A stretch of DNA of 64,000 nucleotides from the NCBI GenBank assembly GCA_934281605.1, contig CAKQXD010000008.1:15114-79113 (forward strand), in the 5' to 3' direction. Below are positions 536 through 53,965 of the stretch, piece after piece (the first letter of the stretch is position 1; each line of letters starts with the position of its first letter). The notes under the pieces were generated by a model. It did no database searches and was not told where the DNA came from. It saw only the letters and a list, made by a program, of their open reading frames with translations. The position numbers were made by a program, and so were the translations under genes. Origin of the DNA: an uncultured Clostridia bacterium (GTDB taxonomy: Bacteria > Bacillota > Clostridia > Peptostreptococcales > Anaerovoracaceae).

Positions 536-576
536 CACAGCACTAGAGATCAAGCAGCGAAGGAGAATTTTTTTCA

Positions 577-1851
577 ATGAAAAAAGTGTGGAACATTATC
601 AGAAAAATTATCGTGTGGGCGATCGTCGTATTCTCGCTGGGCATGATGGCATTCACCATTATTTCCGTCACGACGTTCGACCGTGCGGACCGCAGCGTAT
701 TTGGCTACAGCGCGTTCATCGTACTGTCGGATTCCATGAAGGCTACGGACTTTGATGCAGGAGACCTGGTTCTCATCAAGGAGACCGATCCCAGCACATT
801 AAAGGCAGGCGACATCATCTCGTTCCAGTCGCCGGATGAATCCAACTACGGCGAAATCGTGACTCATAAAATCCGTGAAGTCACAACGGATGACGAAGGA
901 AATCCAGGATTCATCACTTACGGAACAACGACTGATTCCAACGACCAGGGAATCGTCACCTATAATCTGGTAATCGGAAAATATCAGGGACATATTCCGA
1001 ACGTAGGAACTTTCTTTAACTTCCTCAAAACCGTACCGGGGTATTTCATCTGTATTTTCACACCGTTCTTCATCCTGATCCTGGTGCAGGCAAGAAACAG
1101 CATCAAGCTGTTCCGCAAGTACAAGAAGGAGCAGGTGGAAGAAATCCAGGCAGAAAAGAAATCGCTGGAAGAAGAACGGGCCAAATCGCAGGAGATGATG
1201 GAACAGCTGATGCAGATGCAGCAGGCTATGGAGAAAAATGGCGGCACGCTTCCGCCGGAATACCTGGCTCAGATGCAGGCGTCTCAATTTGCAAAGCCTC
1301 CGGCTGACGTTTCTGATACTGCAAAGAGCTCTGCCGACATTCCGAAAGCTGCGCCGCAGCCTGAGCCTCAGAATCCGGCTCCGGCAGACGTTACGCCAGC
1401 GCAGGCGGCATCGGCACAGTCGACCGCAGCGCAGGAAGCTCCGATAGCACCGGTAAGGTCAGAAAGACCGCAGGCTCAAGCACAGCTGCAGAGAACTGGT
1501 GCACCACAAAGACCAGTCACACCGGCAGCCTCGCCGCGATCGACAGCTCCGATCCCACCAGTAAGACCGGAAGCACCGAAACGGACTGTGACACCAGATA
1601 TGTCGCACAGACCGGCGGCTCCACAAAACCCGGTAACGCCGCCACCGGCCACTGCTCCCGTACATCCGGCTCCTGCCCCTCGGCAGAATCCGGCCCCGGA
1701 AGCCCCGACAAGGCCGGCATCTGCCGCGCCGAAGCACCCAGCGCAGCCAGCTTCGCAGCAGAGACCTGCTGTACCGGCAAGATCAGCCAGCAGAGCAGGA
1801 TTCGACGTCCGGTCCGTCGCCAGGGAAAAGAATGACCTGGAACAGAAATAG
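577..1851 (+). CDS. sipW: SipW-type (S26B, archaeal/ER-type) signal peptidase I with long low-complexity C-terminal extension
   Basis: N-terminal TM helix, VLSDSMKAT..GDLVLI..AGDIISF..VTHKI..FITYGTTTDSND matches the SipW pattern VLSGSMEP..GDL..GDVV.F..VTHRI..FITKGDNND (Ser-Met and His retained); second TM, then coiled-coil and roughly 250 aa Pro/Ala/Gln-rich tail; sits inside a TasA-like gene array. Confidence 0.6.
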   Translation: MKKVWNIIRKIIVWAIVVFSLGMMAFTIISVTTFDRADRSVFGYSAFIVLSDSMKATDFDAGDLVLIKETDPSTLKAGDIISFQSPDESNYGEIVTHKIREVTTDDEGNPGFITYGTTTDSNDQGIVTYNLVIGKYQGHIPNVGTFFNFLKTVPGYFICIFTPFFILILVQARNSIKLFRKYKKEQVEEIQAEKKSLEEERAKSQEMMEQLMQMQQAMEKNGGTLPPEYLAQMQASQFAKPPADVSDTAKSSADIPKAAPQPEPQNPAPADVTPAQAASAQSTAAQEAPIAPVRSERPQAQAQLQRTGAPQRPVTPAASPRSTAPIPPVRPEAPKRTVTPDMSHRPAAPQNPVTPPPATAPVHPAPAPRQNPAPEAPTRPASAAPKHPAQPASQQRPAVPARSASRAGFDVRSVAREKNDLEQK

Positions 1852-1879
1852 ACTCAAATAAATACACCTTAAAAAGACC

Positions 1880-1969
1880 CTCCGCTCACCACCCGGTGAG
1901 CGGAGATCAAAGGGCACGAACTGTCGAAGCTTTGCAGAAAAGCATAAATCGACCGCGCCTTTTGATCTC
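1880..1969 (+). other. structured intergenic element 1 (hairpin A CTCCGCTCACC/GGTGAGCGGAG plus 13-bp long-range stem GAGATCAAAGGGC/GCGCCTTTTGATCTC)
   Basis: Inverted repeats read directly; same two-part architecture recurs at 3268, 4627 and 5906 upstream of each paralog. Confidence 0.5.
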
Positions 1970-2061
1970 CGAGAGGGAGAAGCTCCTCTCCTCGAATCTC
2001 TGGAAAAATTTCGAGGGGGGGGTACATCGCACATCGTTATTTAAAATGGAGGAGCAAAACT

Positions 2062-3237
2062 ATGAACGAAAGCACGAAAACGAAAAAAGCACTCCGAGGC
2101 AGTCTGTTCGCATTATTCTTATGCATCGTACTGCTCATCGGAACGACCTTCGCTTGGTTTACAGACACTGCAAGTACAGGCGTAAACAAGATCCAGGCTG
2201 GGAATCTGGATGTGGAGCTGGAATACAGCCATGACATGGTAAAGTGGCAGGCGGCAAACGAGAATACTCAGATGTTTAATGACGACACTCTTTGGGAGCC
2301 GGGGCACACAGAGGTTGTATATCTCCGTGTAAAGAATGCAGGAAATCTGGCACTGAAATACAATATAGCTACAAACTCTTATGATATGGAAAGAGGAAAA
2401 AATGCTGCTGGTGATTTGTTCTATATTGATCAATATCTGAAGATCGGTACCGTGCAGACAAATGCTGCTTTTGCAAACCGCGAAGAAGCGATTGCAGCAA
2501 TCGCTGATACAGAGAAGACAATAGCAAAAGAAACTCCGATCAGTAAAGATTGGACTGTTCTGAAGGCTGGCGAAAAGAGTGCGCCAACTGCGGTTGTTCT
2601 CTATATGCCGACTACAGTTGGTAATGAAGCGAACAATGTTCAGTCTTGGCGTAAGCCTTCACTGAAAGGACTCGGACTGGTTGTAAATGCAACTCAGGCA
2701 ACTGTGGAATCTGATAGCTTCAATAATACATATGATGAAAACGCTGCAACGACGCTTTCAACAGTAAGTTATAGTTCAGGACAGCATAACATTACTGGAA
2801 AAATTCAGGCAAATGGCAGTTTTGGTGCAGTTCAGGCTGAGGGAACAGCTCAGTTTACCATAGATGCTGACGTCTATGCTGTGTACAATAATGGCGGTGC
2901 CATGGCTGTTGAAGCTGGTGGAACCAGTAGGGTTATCATCAATGGAGGAGACTTCCGTCAGGTAGGAGTACCGAAGGATGATTCTGCATGCGATTTGATT
3001 TATGCAACGGACAGTGCGACTATCGAGATCAAGGGTGGAACTTTTAAAGCCGTTAAACCTGCCAATACTCTCAATGTTAAGGACACAGATAGAGGTAGTG
3101 CGAAAATTATCGTTAAAGGCGGATCTTTCTACAAATATGATCCTTCCAATCCTACACTGGGGGATAATGAAGTCTTTGTAGCTGCTGGCTATCATGTAGA
3201 AAAGAGCGGTGACTGGTATAAGGTAGTTGCTGATTAA
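2062..3237 (+). CDS. SipW-cognate signal peptide protein: TasA-like N-domain fused to C-terminal beta-helix-like domain (paralog 1)
   Basis: MNESTKTKKALRGSLFALFLCIVLLIGTTFAWFTDTASTGVNKIQ, cf. TasA GGGTWAAFND/camelysin GGGTFAFFSD; LWEPG..KNAGNLALKY core motif; C-terminal GG-T/F repeats and conserved end PSNP..G....FVAAGY.V; RBS GGAGG upstream. Confidence 0.65.
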   Translation: MNESTKTKKALRGSLFALFLCIVLLIGTTFAWFTDTASTGVNKIQAGNLDVELEYSHDMVKWQAANENTQMFNDDTLWEPGHTEVVYLRVKNAGNLALKYNIATNSYDMERGKNAAGDLFYIDQYLKIGTVQTNAAFANREEAIAAIADTEKTIAKETPISKDWTVLKAGEKSAPTAVVLYMPTTVGNEANNVQSWRKPSLKGLGLVVNATQATVESDSFNNTYDENAATTLSTVSYSSGQHNITGKIQANGSFGAVQAEGTAQFTIDADVYAVYNNGGAMAVEAGGTSRVIINGGDFRQVGVPKDDSACDLIYATDSATIEIKGGTFKAVKPANTLNVKDTDRGSAKIIVKGGSFYKYDPSNPTLGDNEVFVAAGYHVEKSGDWYKVVAD

Positions 3238-3267
3238 GAAAAAATCATTAGCTGATTCAAATAATGT

Positions 3268-3349
3268 AATGCTAATAGTTCCGCTCACCGATAGGTGAGC
3301 GGAAAGTAAAGGACATATTACCACATAAAATCGCGATGGATACTGTGTC
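3268..3349 (+). other. structured intergenic element 2 (hairpin A TTCCGCTCACC/GGTGAGCGGAA plus perfect 15-bp stem GGAAAGTAAAGGACA/TGTCCTTTACTTTCC)
   Basis: Read directly; stem B differs from element 3 at three positions, each with a compensatory change. Confidence 0.5.
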
Positions 3350-3405
3350 CTTTACTTTCCGATAAAAAGATATTGTATTAAGAAATGTGAGAAAGGAAGA
3401 AGCAA

Positions 3406-4611
3406 ATGAACGAGAGCACGAAAACAAAAAAAGCGCTCCGCGGCAGTCTCTTTGCATTATTCTTATGCATCGTACTGCTGATCGGAACGACATTCGCATG
3501 GTTCACGGACACTGCAAGCACAGGTGTGAACAAGATCCAGTCCGGTAAGCTGGATGTGGAACTGCAGTACAAGGACGGTGACACCTGGAAAAATGCAGAA
3601 GGACAGACTTTGGATTTTCAGAAAGCTGAAAAAGGAGCCGGAGAGGAAATCCTTTGGGAACCGGGATGCACGTACAAACTGCCGGAAATCAAAGTTGTTA
3701 ACAACGGAAACCTGGCACTGAAGTACAAACTGGAAGTGACAGGAATCGAAGGTGATAAAAAGCTGAATGAAGTCATCGACTGGACGATTGCTGGTGGTGA
3801 ATTAGATGCGGAGAAGCCTTTGGCAGCAAGTGCATCGTCTGATCCGATGACGATTCAGGGACACATGCAGGAATCTGCAGGTAACGAATATCAAAATCTG
3901 TCCATTGAAGGCATCAGCATTACTGTATATGCAACCCAGGATACAGTTGAAAACGACAGCTTTAATAATCAGTATGATAAGAACGCAACTTATCCGGTGA
4001 AGTCAGCCAATGAGCTGAAAGAAGCGCTTGCTAACGGTGGCAGTGTTTCCGTATCGAAGGATATTAAGACAGATAATATTGGTGATACGGCTGCAGATCG
4101 TGTGATTATTTCAAATCCGACGACGCTGAATTTAGATGCAAAGATCGTAAGCCCGGATGACATGGGGAATAACAATACGAATTTCTGTGCGTTGATTGTT
4201 GATGCGAATACGACGATCAATGCGACTGCAAATGGTGGTATTGATACAGGCAAAAATGGCGGATATGCAATCAATGTTCGCAAGGGCGCAAATCTGACGA
4301 TCAACAATGGCTACTATTACGGTGGCGGTACTGCGGTTCAGGTACAGGAAGGCACACTAACGATCAACGGCGGTACCTTTGCCTGCGAGCCGTTCGGCGC
4401 TCCATATGGTTACAACTTCCTCATCAACTGCGTGGACTCCGCTTACAAAAATGGAACTGCAAAAGTTATCATCAAAGGTGGTACATTCATTAACTTCAAT
4501 CCTTCCAATAACTCCGCAGAAGGAGCAGGAACGAGCTTCGTAGCTGACGGCTACACTGTGAAGTCTGAAGTAAAAGGTAATGATACTTATTATACTGTAG
4601 TAAAGAAATAA
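3406..4611 (+). CDS. SipW-cognate signal peptide protein: TasA-like N-domain plus beta-helix-like C-terminal domain (paralog 2)
   Basis: First 45 aa identical to paralog 1 (synonymous nucleotide differences); LWEPGCTYKLPEIKVVNNGNLALKY; C-terminal SANELKEALANGGSVSVSKDI.. then GG-T repeats; ends FVADGYTVKSEVKGNDTYYTVVKK. Confidence 0.65.
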   Translation: MNESTKTKKALRGSLFALFLCIVLLIGTTFAWFTDTASTGVNKIQSGKLDVELQYKDGDTWKNAEGQTLDFQKAEKGAGEEILWEPGCTYKLPEIKVVNNGNLALKYKLEVTGIEGDKKLNEVIDWTIAGGELDAEKPLAASASSDPMTIQGHMQESAGNEYQNLSIEGISITVYATQDTVENDSFNNQYDKNATYPVKSANELKEALANGGSVSVSKDIKTDNIGDTAADRVIISNPTTLNLDAKIVSPDDMGNNNTNFCALIVDANTTINATANGGIDTGKNGGYAINVRKGANLTINNGYYYGGGTAVQVQEGTLTINGGTFACEPFGAPYGYNFLINCVDSAYKNGTAKVIIKGGTFINFNPSNNSAEGAGTSFVADGYTVKSEVKGNDTYYTVVKK

Positions 4612-4626
4612 ATTTGCTTACACATA

Positions 4627-4699
4627 TTCCGCTCACCGGTGGTGAGCGGAAAGGAAAGAATATTTTACTGGATAATTAGTATGGTATTCTTTCCTTTCC
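4627..4699 (+). other. structured intergenic element 3 (hairpin A plus perfect 15-bp stem GGAAAGGAAAGAATA/TATTCTTTCCTTTCC)
   Basis: Read directly; covaries with element 2. Confidence 0.5.
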
Positions 4700-4766
4700 G
4701 AAGGGAATTGCGTATTGGATTAGATTTACTTTATGGAACGAAATCTAAGAAAGGAAGAAGAAGCAA

Positions 4767-5870
4767 ATGAACGAGAGCACAAAAACGAAAAAAGCACTCC
4801 GCGGCAGTCTCTTTGCATTATTCTTATGCATCGTACTGCTGATCGGAACAACATTCGCATGGTTCACGGATACTGCAAGCACTGGGGTGAACAAGATCCA
4901 GTCTGGTAAGCTGAAAGTTGGACTTCAGTACAAAGATACTGATGGTAACTGGAAGGATGCAACTAAGACAACTTTGGACTTTGTAAAAGCTAAGGATGCT
5001 AAAGATGAAGCAATTTTATGGGAGCCTGGTTGTACTTATGAATTACCACAAATCAAAGTTGTAAATGAAGGTAATTTAGCTCTGAAATATGTTATTAAAG
5101 TAACTGGAATTCAGGGTGATGCTAAGTTGAATGAAGTAATTGACTGGACTGTAGATGGTAATGCATTAGATAAAGATCAAACGCTGTTAGCTAATAAAGA
5201 ATCTGATCCAATGACAATCAAGGGACATATGCAGGAGTCTGCAGGTAACGAATATCAGGATCTGTCGATTGATGGAATCACCATTACTGTATATGCAACG
5301 CAGGATACAGTTGAAAGCGACAGCATTGATAATCAGTACGATAAGGATGCTCAGTACACTGAAACAATCGCAGAGGGCAAAACTTTTACAAGTGGTACCC
5401 ATACTATCAACACTGGTGTTACTGCAACTAAAGCTAATGCGATTGCTGTAAAAGCAACAGGTTCTAGCACCAATGTGACAATCACTGGAGGAACCTTTAA
5501 CGGTGGTTCTGGTGGAAATAATCAGTGCATCCACGTTGCCAATGGTGCAACTGTTACGATCAAGGATGGCACATTTACAGTTGGTGGAGATGCTAAGGGC
5601 GAAGGAAACTCTGTTATTGAGAGCAATGGTGGAAATATCATCATCGAAGGTGGATTTTTCCAGACAGACTATTCTTGGAGAGGTTTCTATTATGTTCTGA
5701 ATCAGCAGAACAATAACCCGGGAACAATCACTGTTAAGGGCGGTACATTCGTAAATTACGATCCAAGCAAGGGTGATGATAACCTGGGTGGAAACTTCGT
5801 AGCTGACGGCTATAAAGTAGTTTCCGAAACTCACGGATCCGATACTTGGTACAAAGTCGTTGTAAAATAA
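4767..5870 (+). CDS. SipW-cognate signal peptide protein: TasA-like N-domain plus beta-helix-like C-terminal domain (paralog 3)
   Basis: Same N-terminus; repeats TITGGTFNGG / TIKDGTFTVGG / IIEGGFF / TVKGGTF; ends FVADGYKVVSETHGSDTWYKVVVK. Confidence 0.65.
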   Translation: MNESTKTKKALRGSLFALFLCIVLLIGTTFAWFTDTASTGVNKIQSGKLKVGLQYKDTDGNWKDATKTTLDFVKAKDAKDEAILWEPGCTYELPQIKVVNEGNLALKYVIKVTGIQGDAKLNEVIDWTVDGNALDKDQTLLANKESDPMTIKGHMQESAGNEYQDLSIDGITITVYATQDTVESDSIDNQYDKDAQYTETIAEGKTFTSGTHTINTGVTATKANAIAVKATGSSTNVTITGGTFNGGSGGNNQCIHVANGATVTIKDGTFTVGGDAKGEGNSVIESNGGNIIIEGGFFQTDYSWRGFYYVLNQQNNNPGTITVKGGTFVNYDPSKGDDNLGGNFVADGYKVVSETHGSDTWYKVVVK

Positions 5871-5905
5871 GATGTAACAATCAAATTATCAAGATTTCAA
5901 TTTCC

Positions 5906-5970
5906 ACCCGCCTTTTGGCGGGCGGGAATCAAAGGGCACAGAGCGCGAGCGGTTTGTGTGCCTTTTGATT
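5906..5970 (+). other. structured intergenic element 4 (hairpin CCCGCC/GGCGGG plus 14-bp stem AATCAAAGGGCACA/TGTGCCTTTTGATT)
   Basis: Read directly; shares the ATCAAAGGGCAC / GCCTTTTGAT arms with element 1, each with a single G-U position. Confidence 0.5.
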
Positions 5971-5998
5971 TCTGAAAATAACAGAAGGAGATTCTGAT

Positions 5999-7417
5999 AT
6001 GAAACGGAGCAGTACAACGAAAAAAGCTCTTTTTATAAGTACGTGTGCATTGTTGTTCAGCCTGCTGATGATGGCTGGCAGTACCTTTGCATGGTTCACA
6101 GACAGCGTCAGCACCGGCAGCAACAAGATTACGACCGGATCGCTGGACGTGCAGCTTTTGCATCAAAATCAGCATGTGGACAGCAGCGAAAAGGTGACGC
6201 AGAGCACGCTTTTGTTCACCGATAAAGATGGAAAAGCGATAAACTGGGAACCGGGCGCGGCGGCATACGAAAACTTTACAGTAAAAAACAACGGCAATCT
6301 GGCACTGAATTACAGACTGGCGCTGGATCTGAACAACGCCAACACCATCGCCGGAACGGACAAATCCTTAAAGGATGTTTTAAAAGTCAAAATCGTGAAA
6401 GGCGGAGTGTCTGCATCAGACGTGAAGGAAGATGCGCTGAAGAATGCAACGAACTTTGCAGCGGTGACGGACGGACAGATCAACATTCCTGCAGCAGCAG
6501 GAGATGCCCGCGAGCAGAAGCTTGTCAAGGATGCAAAGAGCGCAACCTACGGAGTCATTCTTTACTGGCAGCCGGATCCGGAGCGCGATTATGAGTATAA
6601 CCTGACTAATTATCCAAACAAGGATTCCAATAACAATGAGAAGGATCTGACCAGCGATGGCAACGATCATCTTTCGATTGATCTGGGGATCAGCCTGGCG
6701 GCAACGCAGGCGATGGAAGAGGCGGACAGTGCTGGCAATACCTATGATCAGGGCGCGATTTACCCGGCGTCCAGCGCGGCGGAGCTGAAAGACGCATTAA
6801 GCAAGGCTGGCAAGGGCGATGTTGTGGAACTGACGGGAAATATTGCACTGGATTCGGATCTGAGCATCAGCAGGGATGTGACCATCAGAAGCACTGGCGG
6901 TGCGGTGATCTCCGGGGAATCCGTTGTGATCGGTTCGACCGCGGATGTGACGCTGCAGGGCATCACGTTCAAGTCGCCGAGGTCTTCGGGGAACAAGGGA
7001 ATCAGCCTCAAGACTTCTGATTATGCCGGCAAGCTGGTTCTGGACAAGTGTACTTTTGAGGAGCCGCAGTGGAGCAGTCTCAAGATCGATGCAAAGGCTT
7101 CGGCCAGCGTTACCATAAAGAACTGCACGTTCGATGCATCCGGTACAGCGGCGGGTCATAAGTGTGATAAAGAATCGGATTCTTCTGCACTGGCGGATGG
7201 CGCACATCGGATCCTTTCCATTTCGGGAGCTTCGGGAACAGAGCTGACGATGACGGACAATACGTTTAAGGGGCTGGATAAATGCGATGCTTCTTCGGCT
7301 GTTCTGATCAGCGGGATCACCGGAAGCGGACTGAGCGTGAAGGGAAATACAGCGGATACGCTTTCCAAAGTGAGTATCGGTGCGAACGGAAGCACCAGCG
7401 GTTTTACGAAAAAATAA
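5999..7417 (+). CDS. SipW-cognate signal peptide protein: TasA-like N-domain plus pectin-lyase-fold-like parallel beta-helix domain (paralog 4)
   Basis: GSTFAWFTDSVSTGSNKITTGSLDVQL; NWEPG..VKNNGNLALNY; C-terminal AELKDALSKAGKGDVVELTGNIAL.. followed by repetitive V/I-T/S-G strands typical of right-handed beta-helices. Confidence 0.6.
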   Translation: MKRSSTTKKALFISTCALLFSLLMMAGSTFAWFTDSVSTGSNKITTGSLDVQLLHQNQHVDSSEKVTQSTLLFTDKDGKAINWEPGAAAYENFTVKNNGNLALNYRLALDLNNANTIAGTDKSLKDVLKVKIVKGGVSASDVKEDALKNATNFAAVTDGQINIPAAAGDAREQKLVKDAKSATYGVILYWQPDPERDYEYNLTNYPNKDSNNNEKDLTSDGNDHLSIDLGISLAATQAMEEADSAGNTYDQGAIYPASSAAELKDALSKAGKGDVVELTGNIALDSDLSISRDVTIRSTGGAVISGESVVIGSTADVTLQGITFKSPRSSGNKGISLKTSDYAGKLVLDKCTFEEPQWSSLKIDAKASASVTIKNCTFDASGTAAGHKCDKESDSSALADGAHRILSISGASGTELTMTDNTFKGLDKCDASSAVLISGITGSGLSVKGNTADTLSKVSIGANGSTSGFTKK

Positions 7418-7426
7418 CGAGAGGAC

Positions 7427-8143
7427 GTGTTACTGTTGAAAAGACGACAGAACAATTTCATAAAGGACGGGACGGCAGCGGAGTCTTCCGTGTGGAAGAT
7501 GCTGCTCCCTTCGTTTCTGGGAATCATTGTCTGCACCATTTGTCTGGCGGGCATGACCTGGGCGTGGTTTACCAGCGGAGTGCAGTCGCAGTCCACGATA
7601 ACGGCGGACGAGTATTCCCTCAACGAGACCATTACGCCGAAAGCGGGCGGTCAGGCATTAGAAAAGTCCAGTGAAGGAACTTATGCGCTGGCTGCCAATA
7701 CGACGTATGTTGTAAAGGTAACGCCGACGGTGACGCCGCAAAGCGGAGGCTACTGCATCGTCAAGATCATTTCAGACGGCAGTGAGGCCAAGTATTATAC
7801 GCAGTCACTGAATGCCAGCCAGGAATTTAACTTCCTGATTTCCAATGGCAGCAAGGCGGTTTCCTGTCAGGTGATTGCAGCATGGGGAACGCCGGATGCT
7901 TCGAAGACGGCGAATAATACGCTGCTGGGATCGGGTTCGACGATCACAGTCAATGGCGGTGCCCCAGCAGATGTTACACAGCCAGCACAGGATTCGGTAA
8001 AATCCGACTCTAATAAGACGAACTCCGATTCCGATGCCTCCAATGCTGCAAAGGATTCCAACGTATCCAGCGGCAGCGATCAGAAAGATGATGGTGCTGC
8101 GAATACGACCCAGAAGAGCGATCAGGAAACGACTGGGGAGTAA
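7427..8143 (+). CDS. small SipW-cognate signal peptide protein with Ser/Asp/Asn-rich C-terminal tail (paralog 5)
   Basis: CLAGMTWAWFTSGVQSQS motif after a TM segment; start is 9 nt after the stop of paralog 4; polar low-complexity tail. Confidence 0.5.
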   Translation: MLLLKRRQNNFIKDGTAAESSVWKMLLPSFLGIIVCTICLAGMTWAWFTSGVQSQSTITADEYSLNETITPKAGGQALEKSSEGTYALAANTTYVVKVTPTVTPQSGGYCIVKIISDGSEAKYYTQSLNASQEFNFLISNGSKAVSCQVIAAWGTPDASKTANNTLLGSGSTITVNGGAPADVTQPAQDSVKSDSNKTNSDSDASNAAKDSNVSSGSDQKDDGAANTTQKSDQETTGE

Positions 8144-46611: not shown

Positions 46612-46643
46612 AGAATGATACTCTGCTGAAAAGCAGAATGCAA

Positions 46644-46697
46644 AAGGCTATTGCACGAGACTGTACAAGTCAAGGCAATAGCCTTTTTGTTATTTTT
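46644..46697 (+). terminator. intrinsic terminator after clpB
   Basis: AAGGCTATTGC..GCAATAGCCTT plus TTTTGTTATTTTT. Confidence 0.6.
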
Positions 46698-46985
46698 CGA
46701 CACATTTTTCGCGAGGGGGTATTCCCCGATGTACAGAAAAAAATACAAGAAATTTTTCTTCCAAAACCAGACTGAAATCGGACAATCAGACTGGTTTTTC
46801 TTTTTGCTGCAAAGATTTCGCCAGGGCGTATTTTAAAAGAAAAGGATAGCTTGCGGCGTCAGGAGGGGGGCGCATGGCACACATGGGATTTATTAACAAA
46901 CCGTGAGCGCCTTGGAAATACGTGGATTGCGGGGAATTTTGTACCGATGCTAAAATAGGTTATTCATTCGGGGAGGAACATTTTA

Positions 46986-47558
46986 ATGAACAAATCCATA
47001 CGACGAATCTGGAATGTGATCTCCATTATTTTAGTGGTGATCGTCGTGGCATTGACCATACTGCTGGTGGGCGTGCGGCTCATCGGTCTGCAGCCCTATG
47101 CGGTCCTGTCGGGCTCCATGGAGCCGACCTATCATACAGGCGCTCTGATCTATGTGAAAAAGACCCAGCCTCAGGAAGTAGAGGTCGGTGATCCCATTAC
47201 TTTCGTACTGGATGATCAGCTCAACATCGCCACCCACAGGGTAATTAAAATAGACGATGCAAACCGGCATTTTTATACCAAGGGCGATGCCAACGAGTTT
47301 GCCGATGCATCGCCGGTGCACTACAACAACCTGATCGGCAAGCCGGTCTTCACCATCCCTTATTTGGGATACCTGTCCGCCTATGTAAAGGATCCTCCCG
47401 GCAGATACATAGCGCTGGCTGCTGCGGCCGTCCTGCTGCTTCTCGTATTCCTGCCGGATCTGTTTGACGGGGAGAAGAAAAAGGAAAAGAAATCCGGCGC
47501 CAGTGGCAGGGCGGAGTCCTCTGCCGCAGGGGATCATCAAGATGTGGGTAACGCTTAA
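46986..47558 (+). CDS. sipW: SipW-type signal peptidase I (canonical)
   Basis: AVLSGSMEPTYHTGALIYV..VGDPITF..IATHRVIKIDD..FYTKGDANEFAD is collinear with B. subtilis SipW; N- and C-terminal TM segments. Confidence 0.75.
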   Translation: MNKSIRRIWNVISIILVVIVVALTILLVGVRLIGLQPYAVLSGSMEPTYHTGALIYVKKTQPQEVEVGDPITFVLDDQLNIATHRVIKIDDANRHFYTKGDANEFADASPVHYNNLIGKPVFTIPYLGYLSAYVKDPPGRYIALAAAAVLLLLVFLPDLFDGEKKKEKKSGASGRAESSAAGDHQDVGNA

Positions 47559-47607
47559 AAGCGCCCAGATATATTCCATTAAAACTTATTTTACAGGAGG
47601 AAATGAA

Positions 47608-48183
47608 ATGAAAAGCAAGAAGAAAGTTTTTATGACTGTTCTGTGCGCTGCCGCGCTCGTTGTCGCAAGCGTACTGGGAACAATGGCGTTTTTAACGTCA
47701 AAAGACAAGGTAAACAATACGTTTACAGTTGGTAACGTAGCAATCACGCTGGATGAAGCTAAGGTTACCGATGCTGGAAATCCAGTTGAAGGAGCTGACA
47801 GAGTAAAGGCGAATATCTACAAACTGATTCCAGGTCATGAATACACAAAGGACCCTACGGTTCACGTAACTGCAAACAGTGAAGACAGCTGGGTATTCAT
47901 AAAGGTAGAAGACGGTCTTGCTGCTATCGAAGATGATACTACGGTTGCTGATCAGATCACAGGCAATGGGTGGACTGCACTGGATGGCGTTGCAGGCGTT
48001 TATTACAAAGAATACTCTTCCAGCACAGCTGCAACAGATCTGGTTGTGTTTGAAACATTTAAGGTAAAAGGCGATGCTGATGTAGCTCAGTATGCAAACG
48101 CTAAGATCGATGTTACAGCATATGCGATCCAGAAAGATGGATTCACAACACCGGCAGCAGCCTGGGCTGAAGTAAGCAAATAA
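47608..48183 (+). CDS. TasA/camelysin-family protein with SipW-cognate signal peptide (small, 191 aa)
   Basis: LGTMAFLTSKDKVNNTFTVGNVAITLDE; GGAGG RBS. Confidence 0.55.
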   Translation: MKSKKKVFMTVLCAAALVVASVLGTMAFLTSKDKVNNTFTVGNVAITLDEAKVTDAGNPVEGADRVKANIYKLIPGHEYTKDPTVHVTANSEDSWVFIKVEDGLAAIEDDTTVADQITGNGWTALDGVAGVYYKEYSSSTAATDLVVFETFKVKGDADVAQYANAKIDVTAYAIQKDGFTTPAAAWAEVSK

Positions 48184-48228
48184 GCATACACATCGCGTTA
48201 AGACAAATACAAGAAAGGACTATTCGTC

Positions 48229-48939
48229 ATGAAAAAGAAAATCGTAACCTGCTGTCTGGTGGCAGCATTGCTGGTGATCGGCGTCATCGGTGCATCCCTG
48301 GCCTACTTCACCGACAAAGATGCGAAAGACAACGTATTTACGACGGGCAACGTAGATATTTCTCTGCAGGAAAACTTTGAACAGAATTCCAAGCTGCTTC
48401 CGGCAACAGGAAGTGCTCAGAACGGGACACTGGAAAACGGTGTGACCAAGGAGATCATGGTAAAAAATGAACTGAAGTCGGAAGATGCATATGTCCGCGT
48501 ACATATCGCGATCCCGTCTATTTTAGATGACGGCGCTTCCACCTTTGATGCGAAGAATAATGTTCTGCATTTCAACTATGACCCGGATTCCATCGGTGCA
48601 GGCAAGTGGGACTGGTCCAGAACTTCCGGAGCTCCATATCAGGGTGACTGGAATTTCTACACCACTACGATCGACGACATTGACTACAATGTTTACGTTG
48701 TAACATACGGAACTGCGTTAAAGGCTGGAGAAACGACTCCGGAAAAGGCAATGCATCAGGTTTACCTGGACAGCAAGGTAACCAATGCAGATATCACAAA
48801 GATCAAGGAATCTTTAGGCGATAACTGGGAGATCAAGGTTGTCGCAGAAGGAGCGCAGGCTGCTGGCTTTGCAGATGCTTATGCTGCACTGAATGCTGGC
48901 TTCGGCGTGCCGGGCACTTATGACGCTTTTGCAAAATAG
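48229..48939 (+). CDS. TasA/camelysin-family protein with SipW-cognate signal peptide
   Basis: GASLAYFTDKDAKDNVFTTGNVDISLQE (classic AYFTD). Confidence 0.6.
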   Translation: MKKKIVTCCLVAALLVIGVIGASLAYFTDKDAKDNVFTTGNVDISLQENFEQNSKLLPATGSAQNGTLENGVTKEIMVKNELKSEDAYVRVHIAIPSILDDGASTFDAKNNVLHFNYDPDSIGAGKWDWSRTSGAPYQGDWNFYTTTIDDIDYNVYVVTYGTALKAGETTPEKAMHQVYLDSKVTNADITKIKESLGDNWEIKVVAEGAQAAGFADAYAALNAGFGVPGTYDAFAK

Positions 48940-49125
48940 GCTGCTGGATCAGCTGCATACCCTGCTCACATCAAGATGAGCAGGGCATACATGAGTGCCT
49001 GAGGAGGGATCTTTGCAGGAGACGCTGCAAAGAGTTTGCAGACATTCATCTATGTCCTGCGCCGCATGCGTGGGCAAGCGAAAACTAAGTACGTTAATTT
49101 GAGAAAAAAACGAGGAGCTATCACT

Positions 49126-49674
49126 ATGAAAAAGAAAATCGTAGCAGGAGCCGTTCTGGTTCTATGTCTTTCCATGTTGATCTATTCGACGATCGCTTAC
49201 TTTAACACGGCGGACACAGCGAGAAATGTGATCACATCGGGAAACATCAAGATCGCTCTAAACGAGACAGACGCTGCAGGCGCGCCGTTTAAAGACGCCG
49301 TGGACGTCATGCCGGGACAGACGGTCGATAAAATCGTTACCGTACAAAACACAGGAGATAATCCGTCCTACATACGAGTCAGCGTGACGAAAGCCATCCA
49401 GCTGGCAGCAGGCATGAGCGGAAATCCCGACGCCGGTCTGCTTTCGCTGGATTTCGATACGACCCACTGGACGCTGCAGGACGGATATTATTACTATAAT
49501 GAAGCGCTGGAGCCGGGGCAGACCACGGCGCCGCTTTTTACAGGCGTGACTTTCGATAAGTCCATGGGCAATCTGTATCAGAAAAGCAAGGCAGTTATCA
49601 CAGTCAACGCACAGGGCACTCAGGTGGAGCACAACGGCACATCGGCCCTCACCGCAAACGGCTGGCCGGAATAG
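49126..49674 (+). CDS. TasA/camelysin-family protein with SipW-cognate signal peptide
   Basis: STIAYFNTADTARNVITSGNIKIALNE. Confidence 0.55.
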   Translation: MKKKIVAGAVLVLCLSMLIYSTIAYFNTADTARNVITSGNIKIALNETDAAGAPFKDAVDVMPGQTVDKIVTVQNTGDNPSYIRVSVTKAIQLAAGMSGNPDAGLLSLDFDTTHWTLQDGYYYYNEALEPGQTTAPLFTGVTFDKSMGNLYQKSKAVITVNAQGTQVEHNGTSALTANGWPE

Positions 49675-49693
49675 GAAAGGAGGAAACTAGCAT

Positions 49694-52669
49694 ATGAAAA
49701 ACACGAAGAAAAACAAACTACTCTCACTTCTGCTGTGTGGCGCTATGGTTTTCTCGACCTTTGCATTCCTGCCGGCGCGCGTGAATGCGGCGGATGAAAC
49801 GCAGGCTAACGAAGCGACCCGGCAGACCGATGGCAAGGACGCTGCCTCGCAGACCGAGACTAAAGCGCAGGATACGAAGGCGGATAAGGCAAAGAACGGC
49901 AGTCAGGTGACGGAGTCGAAAAAAAGTACAGCTTCCAAGACGTCAACGGTGAAAACCGTGGACTTTACGAAAGCCGCGCCGTTTCTCGATCCGGTAGTCG
50001 GCAAAACGACTGCGAAAAAAGCCAAAGCTGCGAAATCGGCTAAGGCTGCGAGTGCTTCCGATGAATCCACCGGAGTCGATAACGACGGTGTTGTAACTAA
50101 CAAAACTGTAACAAAAAATGAGAATGGCTCATACAAGATTCGTCTGGAATCCTATGTTACAGGGGCGTCGACTACGACGACCGTGACCGAAGATGTACCG
50201 ACGGATATCGTGCTGGTGCTGGACCAGTCGGGAAGTATGGCGGATCCGTTTGGATCGGATGAGTATACTAAGGTTTATAAAGATGATCTGGATACATCAA
50301 AGACATATTATGTGGAAGGTAACAGGGGATACAAGGAAGTATCCTGGTGCGATACCTGTGAAACCTGGACTGATGGATGTCGAAACTATGGCTGGTATCA
50401 TTCCAAAGGGACCTTATATAATCCTAAAACTAGTGATTCGTCAAGCGGAACGCAATTTTATATCCTTCAGCAGGCACAAATCAAGTTACAGGCTTTACAG
50501 GATGCGGTTACTTCATTCTGCGATTCCGTAGCTGATAAGGCAAATGGTGCGGATAAGACCGCAGGGACTATGGATGATGTAAATCACAGAATTGCCATTG
50601 TAGGATTTGGAAGCGACGGCACTTCGAATAGCAATTATTATTATACGAATACAGAGCTGTTTAAGGGTTCTACCCAGACCAGATATGATAACCTGACCGA
50701 AGCGGATTATACAAGTGCCTTTCAGGATATGAATACAGCGACTGGCAAAAGCAATGTTATAAAATCCATAGAGGCGTTAGATGCTAAGGGTGCTACGAGA
50801 GCGGATCTCGGTATGGATATGGCAAAATCCATATTAGATAAAAATTCTGTTCAGCCCGGGGAAAAAAGAAATCGCGTCGTCATCATGTTTACCGATGGAA
50901 GTCCAACGGCAACGAATGGATTCCAATTGAATGTTGCGAACGATGCCATCACGAAAGCAGGCGAGATCAAAACCGCAGGGACTACTGTATATTCCGTTGG
51001 CATCTTTGAGGGGGCGGATGCAACCAGTGCAGGAACAAATCCTGGCGGCAATCTGCAGCAGAATTCCGCGTCCTTGCCGGCGGCTTGCAACTGGTTTATG
51101 CAGAACCTTTCCAGCAATAACGGTACTCCACAGACTCCTAGCTACTACCTTTCTGCCAGCAATAGTGCATCGTTGAGCGAAATTTTCAAGCAGATTTCCG
51201 ATCAGATACAGACGGGAGGAGCCAGTGTAAAGCTGGACAGCACAACGGTTGTAAAGGATATTGTTTCGGACTACTTTGAACTGCCATCGGGTGCAACGGC
51301 AAGTGATATTACGTTGAAAACAGCTGACTTTGATGGATATGAAGCCGATGGGGAAACAGCAAAATGGAAAAATGAAGGAACAGCGCAAGGTGTTACAGCA
51401 AGCATATCCGATAAAACGGTAAATGTCACAGGCTTTGATTTTGCTGCCAATTATGTGGGGATTGATGATAACAATGGAGTGAAATCCAATCGCGGGAAAA
51501 AACTGATTATCGAATTCGATGTGAAGGTGCGCAATGGATTCCTTGGCGGGAATGGCGTTCCAAGCAACGGTGCAGACTCCGGTATTTATACGAAGAAAGA
51601 TGGAGTCGATACGGTTGTAGAGAATTTTGAACAGCCAACCGTTGATGTTCCGGTCAGCAAGATCACTGCGGCGGCTTCCGATAAAAACGTATATCTGGAG
51701 GGCAGTCTTAGTGCAAGTGATATTCGTTCGGGTGTTACCGTGAAAGCGGGAAGCAACACGCTGGATTTAACGAAGGATAACTTTGGCCTTGAACCATGGC
51801 AGAATGCTTTTGTCGATATCAGTGCTACAGTGAAGGATAAAAATGATAACGATATTTTAGCTGAGGAGTATGATGGAATGAACAATCTGACAGAGGACGA
51901 TTCGTACACGGTGAGCGCTTCCATCAAAGCCAAATCCGGCGATGGAGGAAATGCAGATTCTGCGACTGGCAAAGTCAATGTCTTCAAACCGGAGCTGACG
52001 TATAAAGACAGCACGGCATATTACGGTGATACAGCGCCGACAAGCTATGATAGCAACATGGTAGACAGTGCTCTTTGGAAGCATGGAAGTACGACAGATA
52101 CAGACGTAGTTATGACGGGAAGCAGACCAGAGCTGACGATTTACTATGATCCGGCCATCGGAGATACCAACTGGTATAAGGATAATAAGATTTCCGCCAA
52201 ACACGATATTCCGGTCAAGGCAACGGTGAAAATCGGCAATAAAAATGTAACGGATCATATTACTTTTAAGCATGAAAACTGTGCTGGATCCTGCGGATTT
52301 GACAAAGACAAGGAGCAGTTCCTGATCCATGTGAAGGCCTGCAGCCTGACTGTGAAAAAAGAGGGCGGCATGGCAGGAGAGCCGTATGTGATGAACATCT
52401 ATAAAGACGGAGTGCTCTATACCTCGATGACGATCGTCGGCAACAGCAGCGAAACGATAAAAGAGCTGCCAGTGGGAACATACACTGTACAGGAAGATAC
52501 CGACTGGGCTTGGAGATATAAAGATCCTGCCCCAGCAATTTCAGCAGGAGTTGGTCTGAGCAAGAATCATACATCAGGAACGATCACCGTTGAGAACCGT
52601 GACAGATATGGCTCTTTCCTCAATGGATACAGTACCGTTGTGAAGAACGTTTTGGAAACGAGTAAGTAA
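49694..52669 (+). CDS. large secreted VWA-domain protein with C-terminal CnaB/isopeptide-like domain (tip-adhesin-like), no LPXTG
   Basis: Signal peptide ..FLPARVNAADE; VWA MIDAS IVLVLDQSGSM, IAIVGFGSDGT, VVIMFTDGSPT; C-terminal SLTVKKEGG..YVMNIYKDGVLY..LPVGTYTVQEDTD..TITVENR resembles SpaA/CnaB isopeptide domains. Confidence 0.6.
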   Translation: MKNTKKNKLLSLLLCGAMVFSTFAFLPARVNAADETQANEATRQTDGKDAASQTETKAQDTKADKAKNGSQVTESKKSTASKTSTVKTVDFTKAAPFLDPVVGKTTAKKAKAAKSAKAASASDESTGVDNDGVVTNKTVTKNENGSYKIRLESYVTGASTTTTVTEDVPTDIVLVLDQSGSMADPFGSDEYTKVYKDDLDTSKTYYVEGNRGYKEVSWCDTCETWTDGCRNYGWYHSKGTLYNPKTSDSSSGTQFYILQQAQIKLQALQDAVTSFCDSVADKANGADKTAGTMDDVNHRIAIVGFGSDGTSNSNYYYTNTELFKGSTQTRYDNLTEADYTSAFQDMNTATGKSNVIKSIEALDAKGATRADLGMDMAKSILDKNSVQPGEKRNRVVIMFTDGSPTATNGFQLNVANDAITKAGEIKTAGTTVYSVGIFEGADATSAGTNPGGNLQQNSASLPAACNWFMQNLSSNNGTPQTPSYYLSASNSASLSEIFKQISDQIQTGGASVKLDSTTVVKDIVSDYFELPSGATASDITLKTADFDGYEADGETAKWKNEGTAQGVTASISDKTVNVTGFDFAANYVGIDDNNGVKSNRGKKLIIEFDVKVRNGFLGGNGVPSNGADSGIYTKKDGVDTVVENFEQPTVDVPVSKITAAASDKNVYLEGSLSASDIRSGVTVKAGSNTLDLTKDNFGLEPWQNAFVDISATVKDKNDNDILAEEYDGMNNLTEDDSYTVSASIKAKSGDGGNADSATGKVNVFKPELTYKDSTAYYGDTAPTSYDSNMVDSALWKHGSTTDTDVVMTGSRPELTIYYDPAIGDTNWYKDNKISAKHDIPVKATVKIGNKNVTDHITFKHENCAGSCGFDKDKEQFLIHVKACSLTVKKEGGMAGEPYVMNIYKDGVLYTSMTIVGNSSETIKELPVGTYTVQEDTDWAWRYKDPAPAISAGVGLSKNHTSGTITVENRDRYGSFLNGYSTVVKNVLETSK

Positions 52670-52684
52670 AGGAGGTAGGTACGA

Positions 52685-53260
52685 ATGAGAATGAATTTCA
52701 TGAAAAGACGAAGCAGTACAGCCTCCACGAAAATGATGGTGCTGGCAATATCAATCATATTACTTTTAAGCACAGCCGTAATGGGAACCATGATGTTTCT
52801 GGTAAGCAAGACTCCTGTGGTCACCAATACCTTTGCTCCTGCAAAGGTCACCTGCGAGGTGCAGGAGCAGTTTGACGGTACGGTGAAGAAAAACGTTACA
52901 GCAAAGAATACCAGCAATATCGATGCCTATCTGCGCATCAAGCTGGTTTCTTACAGAGTCAATGCAGATGGAGAACGCATCGGCGGAACAGTAGTGATCC
53001 CGAACTTTACGCCGGGTTCCGGCTGGTTTGAACAGGATGGTTTTTACTACTATCATAAGCCGGTTGCACCGGGCGAAATACCGGATGTAAACCTGATTGG
53101 TGATTCTGGAATAACCCTTGTAATCTACACGGATGCAGACGGCGGCAAGCAGGTCATCGAAGTGATCGCAGAAGCGATCCAGGCGAAACCGACCAGCGTC
53201 GTAGCCGATCAATGGAACGTTACAGTCAATGACAGTGGAACCATCAGTAAAAAGAACTAA
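52685..53260 (+). CDS. TasA-like small protein paralogous to 47608
   Basis: MGTMMFLVSKTPVVTNTFAPAKVTCEV parallels GTMAFLTSKDKVNNTFTVGNV; AAGGAGG RBS. Confidence 0.5.
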   Translation: MRMNFMKRRSSTASTKMMVLAISIILLLSTAVMGTMMFLVSKTPVVTNTFAPAKVTCEVQEQFDGTVKKNVTAKNTSNIDAYLRIKLVSYRVNADGERIGGTVVIPNFTPGSGWFEQDGFYYYHKPVAPGEIPDVNLIGDSGITLVIYTDADGGKQVIEVIAEAIQAKPTSVVADQWNVTVNDSGTISKKN

Positions 53261-53272
53261 GGAGGTGCGATC

Positions 53273-53965
53273 ATGAAAAAAACAATTACAATACTCTCGT
53301 CCTTGGTTCTCGTGCTGATCCTGGCGTGCGGGACGGCGGCGCCGTCCTTTGCAGGAGAATCTCATGTAACGTATCAGGGAAAAGCGAAAGACTTCGTGTT
53401 CCAGCCGGGAAGCAGTTACTCGCCGACCGACCTTTTCACCAACTTCAAAGGCGTGATGCCGGGGGATCAGCTGACGCAGCAGATTCAGGTGAAGAATGAC
53501 GCATCGAAAAAAGTGAAAGTGAAACTTTACATAAAAGCTCTCGGTCCTGCAGAACTGCAGGGTGCCAATGGCGGGCAGATCGTCAGCAAAGAGGATTCTG
53601 CGGACTTTCTCAAAGAAATGAATCTGACGGTAACGCAGGATGGCAAGTCGAAGCTGTTTCAGGCACCTGCCGATCAGACTGCCGGTCTCACTGACTGGGT
53701 CTGCCTGGGGACATTTTACTCCGGTGCGGACGTGATGCTCAATGTGAGCCTTGATGTGCCGATCACCATGGGAAACGATTACCAGGATCGGATCGGTGCG
53801 CTGGACTGGCAGTTTATGGCGGAGGAATATCCGATTTCCAAGGATGATCCGAAAGCTGCAAAGACCGGTGACGACATGAATATCTGGCTGTATGCAGGAA
53901 TAGGAGCAGTCGCGCTTCTGGCGGCAGGACTCGTGTTCGCGACACGCCGGAAAAAATCAGAATAA
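53273..53965 (+). CDS. secreted TasA-like-fold protein with C-terminal sorting-signal-like membrane anchor
   Basis: Sec signal ..APSFAGE; PGDQLTQQIQVKNDASKKVKVKLYI resembles the TasA core; C-terminus PKAAKTGDD plus a 20-aa hydrophobic stretch plus RRKKSE (tripartite, LPXTG-like but P replaced by A). Confidence 0.5.
   Translation: MKKTITILSSLVLVLILACGTAAPSFAGESHVTYQGKAKDFVFQPGSSYSPTDLFTNFKGVMPGDQLTQQIQVKNDASKKVKVKLYIKALGPAELQGANGGQIVSKEDSADFLKEMNLTVTQDGKSKLFQAPADQTAGLTDWVCLGTFYSGADVMLNVSLDVPITMGNDYQDRIGALDWQFMAEEYPISKDDPKAAKTGDDMNIWLYAGIGAVALLAAGLVFATRRKKSE

Follow-up and report, generated by a model that had tools for sequence, protein, structure and literature searches.

A seven-gene SipW operon of an uncultured Clostridia bacterium, encoding TasA/BsaA-like paralogues, a tip-adhesin-like VWA protein and a subunit with a sorting signal: a candidate surface-fibre locus of the bsa type

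The DNA analysed here, called the window below, is a stretch of 64,000 nucleotides from an uncultured Clostridia bacterium (family Anaerovoracaceae; GenBank assembly GCA_934281605.1, contig CAKQXD010000008.1, positions 15,114 to 79,113 of the forward strand). At positions 46986-53965 it carries an operon of seven genes, all on the + strand, which encode a SipW-type signal peptidase, four TasA/BsaA-like proteins (T1 to T4), a secreted protein of 991 amino acids (aa) with a VWA domain, placed between T3 and T4 and referred to as the cargo, and a putative anchor protein (T5). An earlier reading made from the letters alone (the sequence-only reading) had placed seven + strand open reading frames (ORFs) over this span, and the ORF list of the window agrees with it, as do genes called independently on public metagenomic contigs of identical sequence. 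The genes are as follows.

46612..46985, + strand: intergenic region between clpB and sipW, presumed promoter/leader
46986..47558, + strand: SipW-type (ER/archaeal-type) signal peptidase I, 190 aa
47608..48183, + strand: T1, TasA/BsaA-like subunit, 191 aa
48229..48939, + strand: T2, TasA/BsaA-like subunit, 236 aa
49126..49674, + strand: T3, TasA/BsaA-like subunit, 182 aa
49694..52669, + strand: VWA protein (cargo), secreted, 991 aa
52685..53260, + strand: T4, fourth TasA/BsaA-like subunit, 191 aa
53273..53965, + strand: T5, putative base/anchor subunit, 230 aa

Gaps between the genes are, in gene order, of 49, 45, 186, 19, 15 and 12 nucleotides (nt). The mechanical ORF list runs T1 and T3 too far upstream, the real starts being MKSKKK for T1 and MKKKIV for T3.

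Protein families were assigned with hidden Markov models (HMMs), using cut-offs of 51.85 bits for TIGR02228, 22.5 for PF12389, 19 for TIGR04088, 60 for TIGR04090 and 15.9 for TIGR01167. The peptidase had been recognised as a SipW from its sequence, and it reached 116.9 bits (E 7.6e-34) on TIGR02228. It also matches Pfam Peptidase_S26, as well as the NF046067 SipW model (E 7.7e-29, under the Bacillus equivalog cut-off), and bears the motifs SGSMEP (S44), THRV (H84) and GDAN (D101). In all related loci that extend over this region, SipW heads the operon.

TasA-family proteins polymerise by donor-strand exchange. The sequence-only reading had seen three small proteins sharing the signal motif A[YF][FL][TN], and T1, T2 and T3 do contain AFLT, AYFT and AYFN, respectively. 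T1 has a SipW-cognate signal peptide (..GTMA/FLTS) and a donor-strand-like VNNTF, and passes the cut-offs of both PF12389 (Peptidase_M73, 22.6 bits) and TIGR04088 (27.5 bits). The same holds for T2 (..SLA/YFTD, DNVF; 27.1 and 34.5 bits), which in addition matches the BsaA family TIGR04090 below threshold (E 4.2e-8, residues 10-192) and the TasA model NF046066 (E 0.0013). T3 (..TIA/YFNT, RNVI) is better conserved than T1 and T2, with 42-62% identity between orthologues in relatives. It scores 25.8 bits on PF12389, so that all three proteins lie above the gathering score of that family, over stretches from about residues 1-50 to 1-78, and 55.6 bits (E 6e-15) on TIGR04090, below the 60-bit cut-off.

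A fourth protein of this kind had been proposed after the cargo gene, and T4 is found directly there in every related locus covering that position. Its signal, ..GTMM/FLVS, has MFLV at the place of the motifs of T1-T3; it contains VTNTF and a conserved VTCEV, matches TIGR04090 below threshold (E 3e-4), and profile-profile comparison with hhalign relates it to T1-T3 with probabilities of 98.4-99.4%. The Cys of VTCEV, in the first strand past the donor strand, is kept in T4 orthologues except those of loci L008, L009 and L018.

By the same method, the orthologue groups of T1-T4 are mutually homologous over their full length (probability 98.3-99.9%). Among 30 members of the family, 23 match TIGR04090 (all sub-threshold), 17 Peptidase_M73 and 17 TIGR04088. 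In a joint alignment of these 30 sequences, the Asn of an N-terminal x-N-[TV]-[FI] strand is present in all, as is a Glu or Asp 13 residues after it; the Lys of a PG-x-x-x-K strand is kept in 26, and a Trp and a C-terminal A-x-A-x-Q motif are invariant. The equivalence of these Asn, Glu and Lys residues with N35, E56 and K74 of BsaA is an argument from spacing only. A mixed T1-T4 profile searched against the PDB sequences found no match. Together, the sequence comparisons support T1-T4 as SipW-type TasA/BsaA-like paralogues, four in number.

Within the 991-aa VWA protein the following features were distinguished.

49949..50002, + strand: conserved short motif KTVDFTKAAPFLDPVVG, aa 86-103, within an otherwise disordered N-terminal region
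50201..51208, + strand: VWA domain with a complete metal ion-dependent adhesion site (MIDAS) and inserted beta arms, about aa 170-505
52340..52597, + strand: C-terminal SpaA/CnaB-like beta-sandwich, aa 883-968, with the candidate intramolecular isopeptide triad K889/E934/N968
52613..52657, + strand: conserved C-terminal tail SFLNGYSTVVKNVLE, aa 974-988, of low confidence in the monomer model

The protein begins with a signal peptide (1-32) and a disordered linker rich in Lys, Ala and Thr, followed by a beta-sandwich with the VWA domain inserted, beta stalk domains and the C-terminal SpaA/CnaB-like domain. A Pfam scan returned the VWA domain alone (E 3.5e-8). Its MIDAS consists of D177-x-S179-x-S181, T368 (in GATR) and D401 (in TDGS), all invariant in 35 homologues. 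The sequence-only reading was thus right in calling the site complete, and mistaken in counting FGSDGT as part of it: this segment is a beta-strand, and the MIDAS Thr is T368. An AlphaFold2 model, computed with an alignment of homologues as input, had a mean predicted local distance difference test score (pLDDT) of 76.6; it shows about 100 disordered residues after the signal peptide, the VWA domain within a beta-sandwich, three more beta domains, and a seven-strand C-terminal domain at aa 883-968.

A VWA domain combined with CnaB domains is typical of Gram-positive pilus tip adhesins such as SpaC and RrgA, and it was on this composition that a likeness to such adhesins had been suggested. The 991-aa protein does have a MIDAS-bearing VWA domain on CnaB-type immunoglobulin-like (Ig) domains. 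When the model was searched against the PDB with Foldseek, the pilus islet-2 tip pilin PitA came first (E 9.8e-11), and the closest folds were SpaC, PitA, Mfa5, RrgA and GBS104; phmmer of the protein against the PDB sequences found no match. The modelled fold is nearest to the tip adhesins of sortase pili, SpaC, PitA, RrgA and GBS104, which supports the suggestion. As the sequence-only reading had stated, the protein has no LPXTG motif: no LPXTG-like tail, C-terminal transmembrane (TM) segment or other anchor was found in it. HMM scans recognised in it neither a TasA-like domain nor a SipW-type signal peptide.

The C-terminal domain, also foreseen by that reading as CnaB/SpaA-like, has K889, E934 and N968 invariant and on predicted strands 1, 5 and 7 of seven. 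Pfam DUF5979 matches the window copy with E 1e-3 (20 bits against a threshold of 25). Among 13 homologous domains, DUF5979 is matched by 10 (best 4.4e-7), SpaA PF17802 by 7 (best 6e-5) and DUF7601 by 6, and a profile of the domain found nothing significant among PDB sequences, with GBS104 at E 6. By strand, the three residues follow the arrangement of CnaB-type isopeptide domains, which makes the bond itself a candidate. A profile of this domain together with the tail retrieved 948 clusters at 50% identity (E<=1e-10). Of the 150 top-ranking representatives of these 948 clusters, proteins of 750-1370 aa, nearly all have the module at their extreme C-terminus, and 8 of 10 sampled proteins that carry it have a VWA match. 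It is also shared by a relative of 703 aa (P0387), which matches Pfam GBS104-like_Ig and sits in the same seven-gene frame. Two giant proteins, P0241 (4272 aa) and P0242 (2691 aa), contain 24-31 tandem domains of the SpaA-like C-terminal type, without the tail; this domain therefore also serves as a repeated stalk unit in large adhesins. Two invariant Cys, C863 and C883 (52280-52345), lie just N-terminal of the last domain of the 991-aa protein.

Two short segments of the cargo are conserved outside its folded domains. The first, at aa 86-103 (KTVDFTxxAPFLDPVxG), has V89, T92, A95 and P96 conserved in at least 90% of the 35 homologues, while its flanks are not; in the model, pLDDT is about 77 in block 91-100, versus 22-45 in the neighbouring blocks. 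It is a candidate docking or strand element. Its reading as a TasA-type donor strand was rejected as unproven, the alignment of TVDFTxxAPFL with xNTF strands being unconvincing. The second is the tail (SFLNGYSTVVKNxL), in which L976, N977, S980 and N985 are invariant and pLDDT is below 50 for residues 976-991. Its conservation suggests a candidate partner-binding or strand element.

The last gene of the operon, T5, encodes a protein with an ordinary AxA-type signal peptide, not of the SipW type, and the following C-terminal signal; related loci contain the other forms of T5 listed with it.

53855..53962, + strand: sorting signal AAKTG-DD, hydrophobic helix (IWLYAGIGAVALLAAGLVFA) and RRKKSE, matched by TIGR01167
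L007 11252-12997 and L010 11796-13052: T5 orthologues with Cna_B repeats
L008 11612-12916 and L009 11636-12943: T5 orthologues with SLH domains

The sequence-only reading had described T5 as a TasA-core-like protein with a C-terminal anchor. The anchor signal stood up well, and the likeness to TasA turned out to be weak though specific. A profile of ten T5 orthologues, searched against PDB sequences, placed TasA (8aur/5of1) on top at E 0.06 only, in a colinear match that takes in a terminal GNxYQ...F.F.E motif. With signal peptides included, hhalign related T5 to T3 at 97%, falling to 93% once they were removed, over 37 columns only (a VMPGD..T..I.V.N core); no signal was obtained between T5 and T1 or T4 without signal peptides. 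The AlphaFold2 model of T5 is a beta-sandwich (pLDDT 72.8).

The tail of T5 had been regarded as one that merely mimics a sorting signal, on a fibre anchored without sortase. This was not supported. The tail scores 24.1 bits on TIGR01167 (LPXTG_anchor), above the cut-off, and T198, G199 and D200 are invariant among T5 orthologues. All 120 listed T5 homologues, from an anchor family of 3198 members, have the sequence x-x-[KQREA]-T-G-[D/E/G], then a hydrophobic helix and a tail of Arg/Lys. Among the variants are KTKTGDD (62), PPQTGED, DPKTGDD and SPQTGDD, with (S/P)PxTG in many homologues, and two homologues are named "LPXTG cell wall anchor domain-containing protein" by NCBI. SrtB of C. difficile cleaves (S/P)PXTG signals between Thr and Gly, with Asp after the Gly in SPKTGDE and SPKTGDS, and the signals of the T5 family match this type of substrate (PMC4155245). 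Sortase cleavage of T5 would fall after Thr198, within the stretch DPKAAKTGDDMN. In distant relatives (L005, L007, L010), the T5-type N-terminal domain is followed by 2-4 Cna_B repeats, LIQTGQ, a TM segment and KKKK. In L008 and L009, three SLH domains replace the sorting signal behind the T5-type N-terminal domain, a swap expected of a wall-anchoring subunit.

A sortase had been reported missing from the window, and in agreement with this no TLxTC sortase motif was found in the 64 kb, nor any Pfam sortase among the genes called on either side of the operon, over about 8 kb upstream and about 20 kb downstream. No sortase was present on about 76 kb of the contig, including a further 8 kb downstream of the window, and no sortase family appeared among the Pfam annotations of neighbours in related loci. 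A search of the 13 related loci described below for TLxTC gave two matches (L008, L009), which were discounted without a family scan, the motif lying near the N-terminus (residues 21-67). Since the T5 tail passes the LPXTG-anchor model, has a TG core conserved in 120 of 120 homologues and takes SrtB-like forms, T5 is probably anchored by a housekeeping sortase encoded elsewhere, and polymerisation is plausibly the only sortase-independent part of the system.

A motif of the same x-R/K-TGD kind is used twice in the source organism. In L023, a 442-aa call (3209-4537, whose C-terminal part corresponds to window 23-535) consists of a T5-like domain with a sorting-signal-like LTARTGD, a TM segment and KSRRDKKK; reading on in that frame, it has another SipW-type signal (TTFALITS) and a domain resembling TasA (NF046066, E 8e-4). 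The call represents a fusion or else two genes with no stop between them.

Comparison of gene order in relatives had been named as a check, and the order proved to be kept. SipW, 2-4 T genes, cargo, T4 and T5 follow one another in all 13 species-representative loci, wherever the contig is long enough, and on five additional contigs, retrieved by way of T5 or VWA homologues, with the identity of the VWA protein falling to about 40% among the 13. Their hosts are metagenome-assembled genomes of uncultured Clostridia, Oscillospiraceae and Erysipelotrichaceae, plus two bins with odd Bacteroidota labels. The latter, L001 and L013, carry an operon of the Clostridia type in bins labelled Bacteroidaceae and Alloprevotella, and these labels probably reflect binning contamination rather than true Bacteroidota hosts. 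One-to-one orthology is kept for T3, T4 and T5, with greater variability in T1 and T2. In the index of the assembly collection, a single VWA orthologue appears in 176 blocks.

The cargo slot itself is modular. In L018 (3520-9405), the same frame of SipW, three T genes, cargo, T4 and T5 contains a cargo of 1961 aa with Flg_new (Listeria-Bacteroides) repeats and no VWA domain. Its resemblance to the 991-aa protein is confined to the C-terminal SpaA-like domain, K, E and N included (E 6e-4), and to the tail. Where T5 identity is the same (61-62%), the change of cargo is accompanied by a drop in T4 identity from 61% to 35% and in T3 identity from 60% to 42%, which means that T3, cargo and T4 vary together as a block. 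The N-terminus of the L018 cargo (..AGTVMMTGGSDTVGCEVEF) resembles that of T4 (..GTMMFLV...VTCEVQE).

The sequence-only reading had considered that no such system was described. This has to be withdrawn, as the sipW-bsaA-bsaB-bsaC(-RSD) operon of C. perfringens is made up of the same parts (Obana 2020, PMC7395162; PMC11580942). There, SipW is needed for the export of BsaA, the extracellular polymers of BsaA resist SDS and do not depend on the adjacent sortase srtB, and BsaC is a secreted VWA protein (PMC7395162; PMC11580942). A srtB mutant makes normal BsaA polymers (PMC7395162), over-expression of bsa yields a gel-like matrix, and most strains have a BsaB-like paralogue with an LPXTG motif (PMC11580942). 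Models and mutagenesis of BsaA point to N-terminal donor-strand exchange and an N35-K74 isopeptide lock, with E56 as catalytic residue (Kivimaki et al. 2025 preprint, PMC11580942). Genes for LPxTG and SpaA proteins, for signal peptidases and for sortases had already been reported around TasA-family genes, and several TasA-like paralogues per operon were taken as a hint of heteropolymers (PMC11580942).

The two operons are alike in having SipW first, then TasA-like paralogues with SipW-type signals, a co-encoded secreted VWA protein, and a TasA-like protein bearing an anchor signal (T5 here, the LPXTG BsaB-like protein in most strains there), and in a polymerisation that needs no sortase, by prediction in the case of the window; T1-T4 score on the BsaA family TIGR04090, although all under its curated cut-off. 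They differ in that the operon of the window has four SipW-type paralogues plus a separate anchor subunit which is not of the SipW type, and carries its VWA gene between T3 and T4 instead of at the end. The VWA protein is also larger (991 aa, compared with about 70 kDa for BsaC) and has a SpaC-like stalk and a SpaA-like C-terminal domain, BsaC being compared by its description. Neither an adjacent srtB nor bsaRS-type two-component genes occur in the operon studied here.

With tapA-sipW-tasA of B. subtilis and sipW-tasA-calY of B. cereus, the operon shares the dedicated SipW and subunits of the TasA fold with N-terminal donor-strand exchange, both predicted in our case. TapA, which ties the B. 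subtilis fibre to the cell, would be the functional counterpart of T5; however, no TapA homologue is present here, the anchor bears a sortase-type signal, the adhesin gene lies inside the operon, several paralogous subunits take the place of one major subunit, and Asn stands at the Asp position of the TasA donor strand. The TasA-like filaments of archaea (bundling pili, Sulfolobus threads; PMC9715654) are also made of TasA-superfamily subunits with donor strands, some with inter-subunit isopeptide bonds, but they are homopolymers of archaeal surface proteins; a VWA cargo, a sortase signal and a multi-paralogue operon like the present one are all lacking. Finally, sortase pili (SpaC of L. rhamnosus GG, 6m48; PitA, 7vcr/7w6b; RrgA, 2ww8; GBS104, 3txa) share with the cargo a MIDAS VWA head inserted in a beta-sandwich, an Ig-like stalk, and a CnaB/SpaA-like domain with a Lys/Glu/Asn triad. 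In contrast to theirs, the adhesin has no LPXTG motif, and no pilin-specific sortase was found in the window; with TasA-like proteins instead of CnaA/CnaB pilins as candidates for the shaft, joining of the adhesin to it would need another chemistry.

Starting from what was observed directly (gene content, family and fold assignments, conservation of the sorting signal, synteny and the modular cargo slot), we consider it likely that the locus is a bsa-type, SipW-dependent surface-fibre operon, working in outline as follows. SipW would cut the special signal peptides off T1-T4. The exposed N-terminal x-N-[TV]-[FI] strand of each would then complete the beta-sandwich of a neighbour, by donor-strand exchange as in TasA and BsaA, so that no pilin-polymerising sortase would be needed for the fibre; this step is suggested by homology to BsaA and TasA. 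The conservation of Asn, Glu and Lys at three positions of T1-T4 would also allow a BsaA-like intermolecular isopeptide lock. At the base, the sorting signal of T5 would be cut by a housekeeping sortase encoded elsewhere, tying the fibre to peptidoglycan, and SLH domains would act instead in some relatives; the signal and its replacement by SLH domains both point to such a role. The 991-aa protein would be an adhesive cargo, with a metal-dependent (MIDAS) VWA head for ligand binding on a stalk of beta domains, joining the fibre through its C-terminal SpaA-like domain and tail, and with the flanking, co-varying T3 and T4 as possible adaptors. Synteny, co-variation and the conserved unstructured termini are consistent with this coupling. 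The order of the subunits, the position of the adhesin at the tip, the use of a sortase and the isopeptide bonds are parts of the scheme that we infer.

Several results weigh against this fibre scheme. The Pfam Peptidase_M73 matches of T1-T3 pass the gathering score mainly over the N-terminal 50-80 residues only. Foldseek with the T5 model found generic jelly-roll or CBM-like sandwiches only (E>1e-3), TasA not being in the top 50. The motif of the window copy is AAKTG, not (S/P)PxTG, and none of the related loci has a sortase gene within 8-10 kb of its operon. In C. perfringens, BsaA oligomers of strain HN13 behaved as membrane-anchored, not wall-anchored, and BsaC was recovered from the culture supernatant (PMC11580942).

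The alternative that survives best is a biofilm-matrix operon, in which the T proteins would make loose extracellular matrix fibres like those of C. perfringens and B. subtilis, the VWA protein would be a free secreted matrix or host-binding protein, and T5 a separate surface protein or nucleator. The free BsaC of the C. perfringens secretome and the gel-like matrix seen upon bsa over-expression fit this well, as do the lack of a TasA-like domain or SipW-type signal in the 991-aa protein and the fact that its physical link with the fibre is deduced. We nevertheless regard a matrix operon as unlikely, roughly a one-in-four prospect in our judgement, for the T3-cargo-T4-T5 block is strictly conserved with gaps of 12-19 nt, the termini of the cargo are conserved though unstructured, T3 and T4 co-vary with the cargo, the unrelated cargo of L018 has the same C-terminal domain and a similar tail in the same slot, and the 991-aa fold is closest to pilus tip adhesins.

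It is more improbable still that the fibre is fully independent of sortase, the T5 tail being a plain C-terminal membrane anchor that imitates a sorting signal. This would agree with the lack of a sortase in the window or adjoining any related operon, with the departure of AAKTG from both LPXTG and (S/P)PXTG, and with the membrane-anchored oligomers of HN13 and the normal polymers of the srtB mutant. Yet a TM segment alone needs no invariant T-G-D at 4-6 residues before the helix, and this is what 120 of 120 homologues have, in clades whose linkers cannot be aligned. The tail is above the TIGR01167 cut-off, many homologues have exactly PPQTG, SPQTG or PPKTG, the kind of motif that SrtB of C. 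difficile cleaves, and wall-binding SLH domains act as the substitute in L008 and L009. Housekeeping sortases, moreover, are normally unlinked to the genes of their substrates. A conventional sortase-assembled pilus of the SpaCBA type, with pilins misread as TasA-like, would explain why the VWA protein is nearest SpaC, PitA, RrgA and GBS104 and why T5 has a sorting signal and Cna_B repeats in its relatives, but is very improbable, being contradicted by the missing sorting signals on all proteins but one (T1-T4 and the VWA protein end without sorting signal, TM segment or LPXTG-like tail), by the lack of a class C sortase nearby, and by the matches of T1-T4 to TasA, BsaA and SipW-cognate models, not pilin models, in an operon headed by a dedicated SipW.

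The bsa-type fibre operon can be carried one step further, to a proposal that we put forward tentatively, as possible rather than probable: a hybrid organelle, widespread in gut Clostridia, with a TasA/BsaA-like heteropolymer as shaft (held by donor strands and perhaps Asn-Lys locks), a base fixed to peptidoglycan by a housekeeping sortase or, in some relatives, by SLH domains, and an exchangeable tip cargo (VWA or Flg_new) attached through the SpaA-like domain and tail, T3 and T4 serving as cargo-specific adaptors. If true, it would represent a third, modular route to adhesive pili in Gram-positive bacteria, in addition to sortase polymerisation and type IV pili.

Fibres of the TasA/BsaA type have been studied almost solely in Bacillus and C. 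perfringens, and the same toolkit is found here, expanded to a very regular set of seven genes, among gut Clostridia that are abundant and uncultured. Both parts list and central idea had already been published for bsa, and little surprise is left after those papers; what differs here is the regular seven-gene form, the separate non-SipW anchor, the SpaC-like VWA protein in mid-operon, the exchangeable cargo and the absence of a linked sortase. The value of the locus is that of a well-defined, testable example with a modular cargo slot, not of a new principle. A SpaC-like VWA adhesin on a fibre anchored to the wall by sortase would likely be a colonisation or aggregation factor of commensals, and would offer a tractable case of a non-pilin cargo coupled to a donor-strand-exchange polymer.

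The gap of 186 nt between T2 and T3 (48940-49125) is the sole long one of the operon. It has no Rfam match and no clear promoter or terminator, and could divide the variable SipW-T1-T2 part from the conserved T3-cargo-T4-T5 block. The operon is chromosomal. Upstream lie a ribosomal-protein/rpoA/rplQ block and clpB, whose terminator-like hairpin is found at 46672-46685, in the region between clpB and sipW; the genes downstream are transcribed convergently. Promoter and terminator scans of the operon gave nothing above shuffled expectation, no convincing sigma-70 site was found on the + strand of the clpB-sipW leader, and an Rfam scan of the leader and internal gaps returned no family, for example no cyclic di-GMP riboswitch.

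Phage-type integrase genes flank the operon in L020 (216-1349) and L025 (3726-4859 and 11467-12279), and in these genomes it may travel on integrative elements. No integrase gene adjoins the copy of the window.

The window also contains a second SipW-dependent cluster, which occupies positions 1-8143 and about 800 nt upstream (L023 3209-12145). Its SipW-like peptidase (577-1851) has a long Pro/Ala-rich tail, 34% identity with the first SipW and a score of 69 bits on TIGR02228. Four paralogues follow (2062-3237, 3406-4611, 4767-5870 and 5999-7417), all above the TIGR04088 cut-off; their SipW-type signals are near-identical, with GTTFAWFTDTASTG in three and GSTFAWFTDSVSTG in the fourth, and their C-terminal halves are beta-helix-like (one gives a weak match to Pfam Beta_helix). 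A further protein of the cluster, at 7427-8143, carries WAWFTSG. The GC content of this second cluster is 0.42-0.44, compared with about 0.53 nearby.

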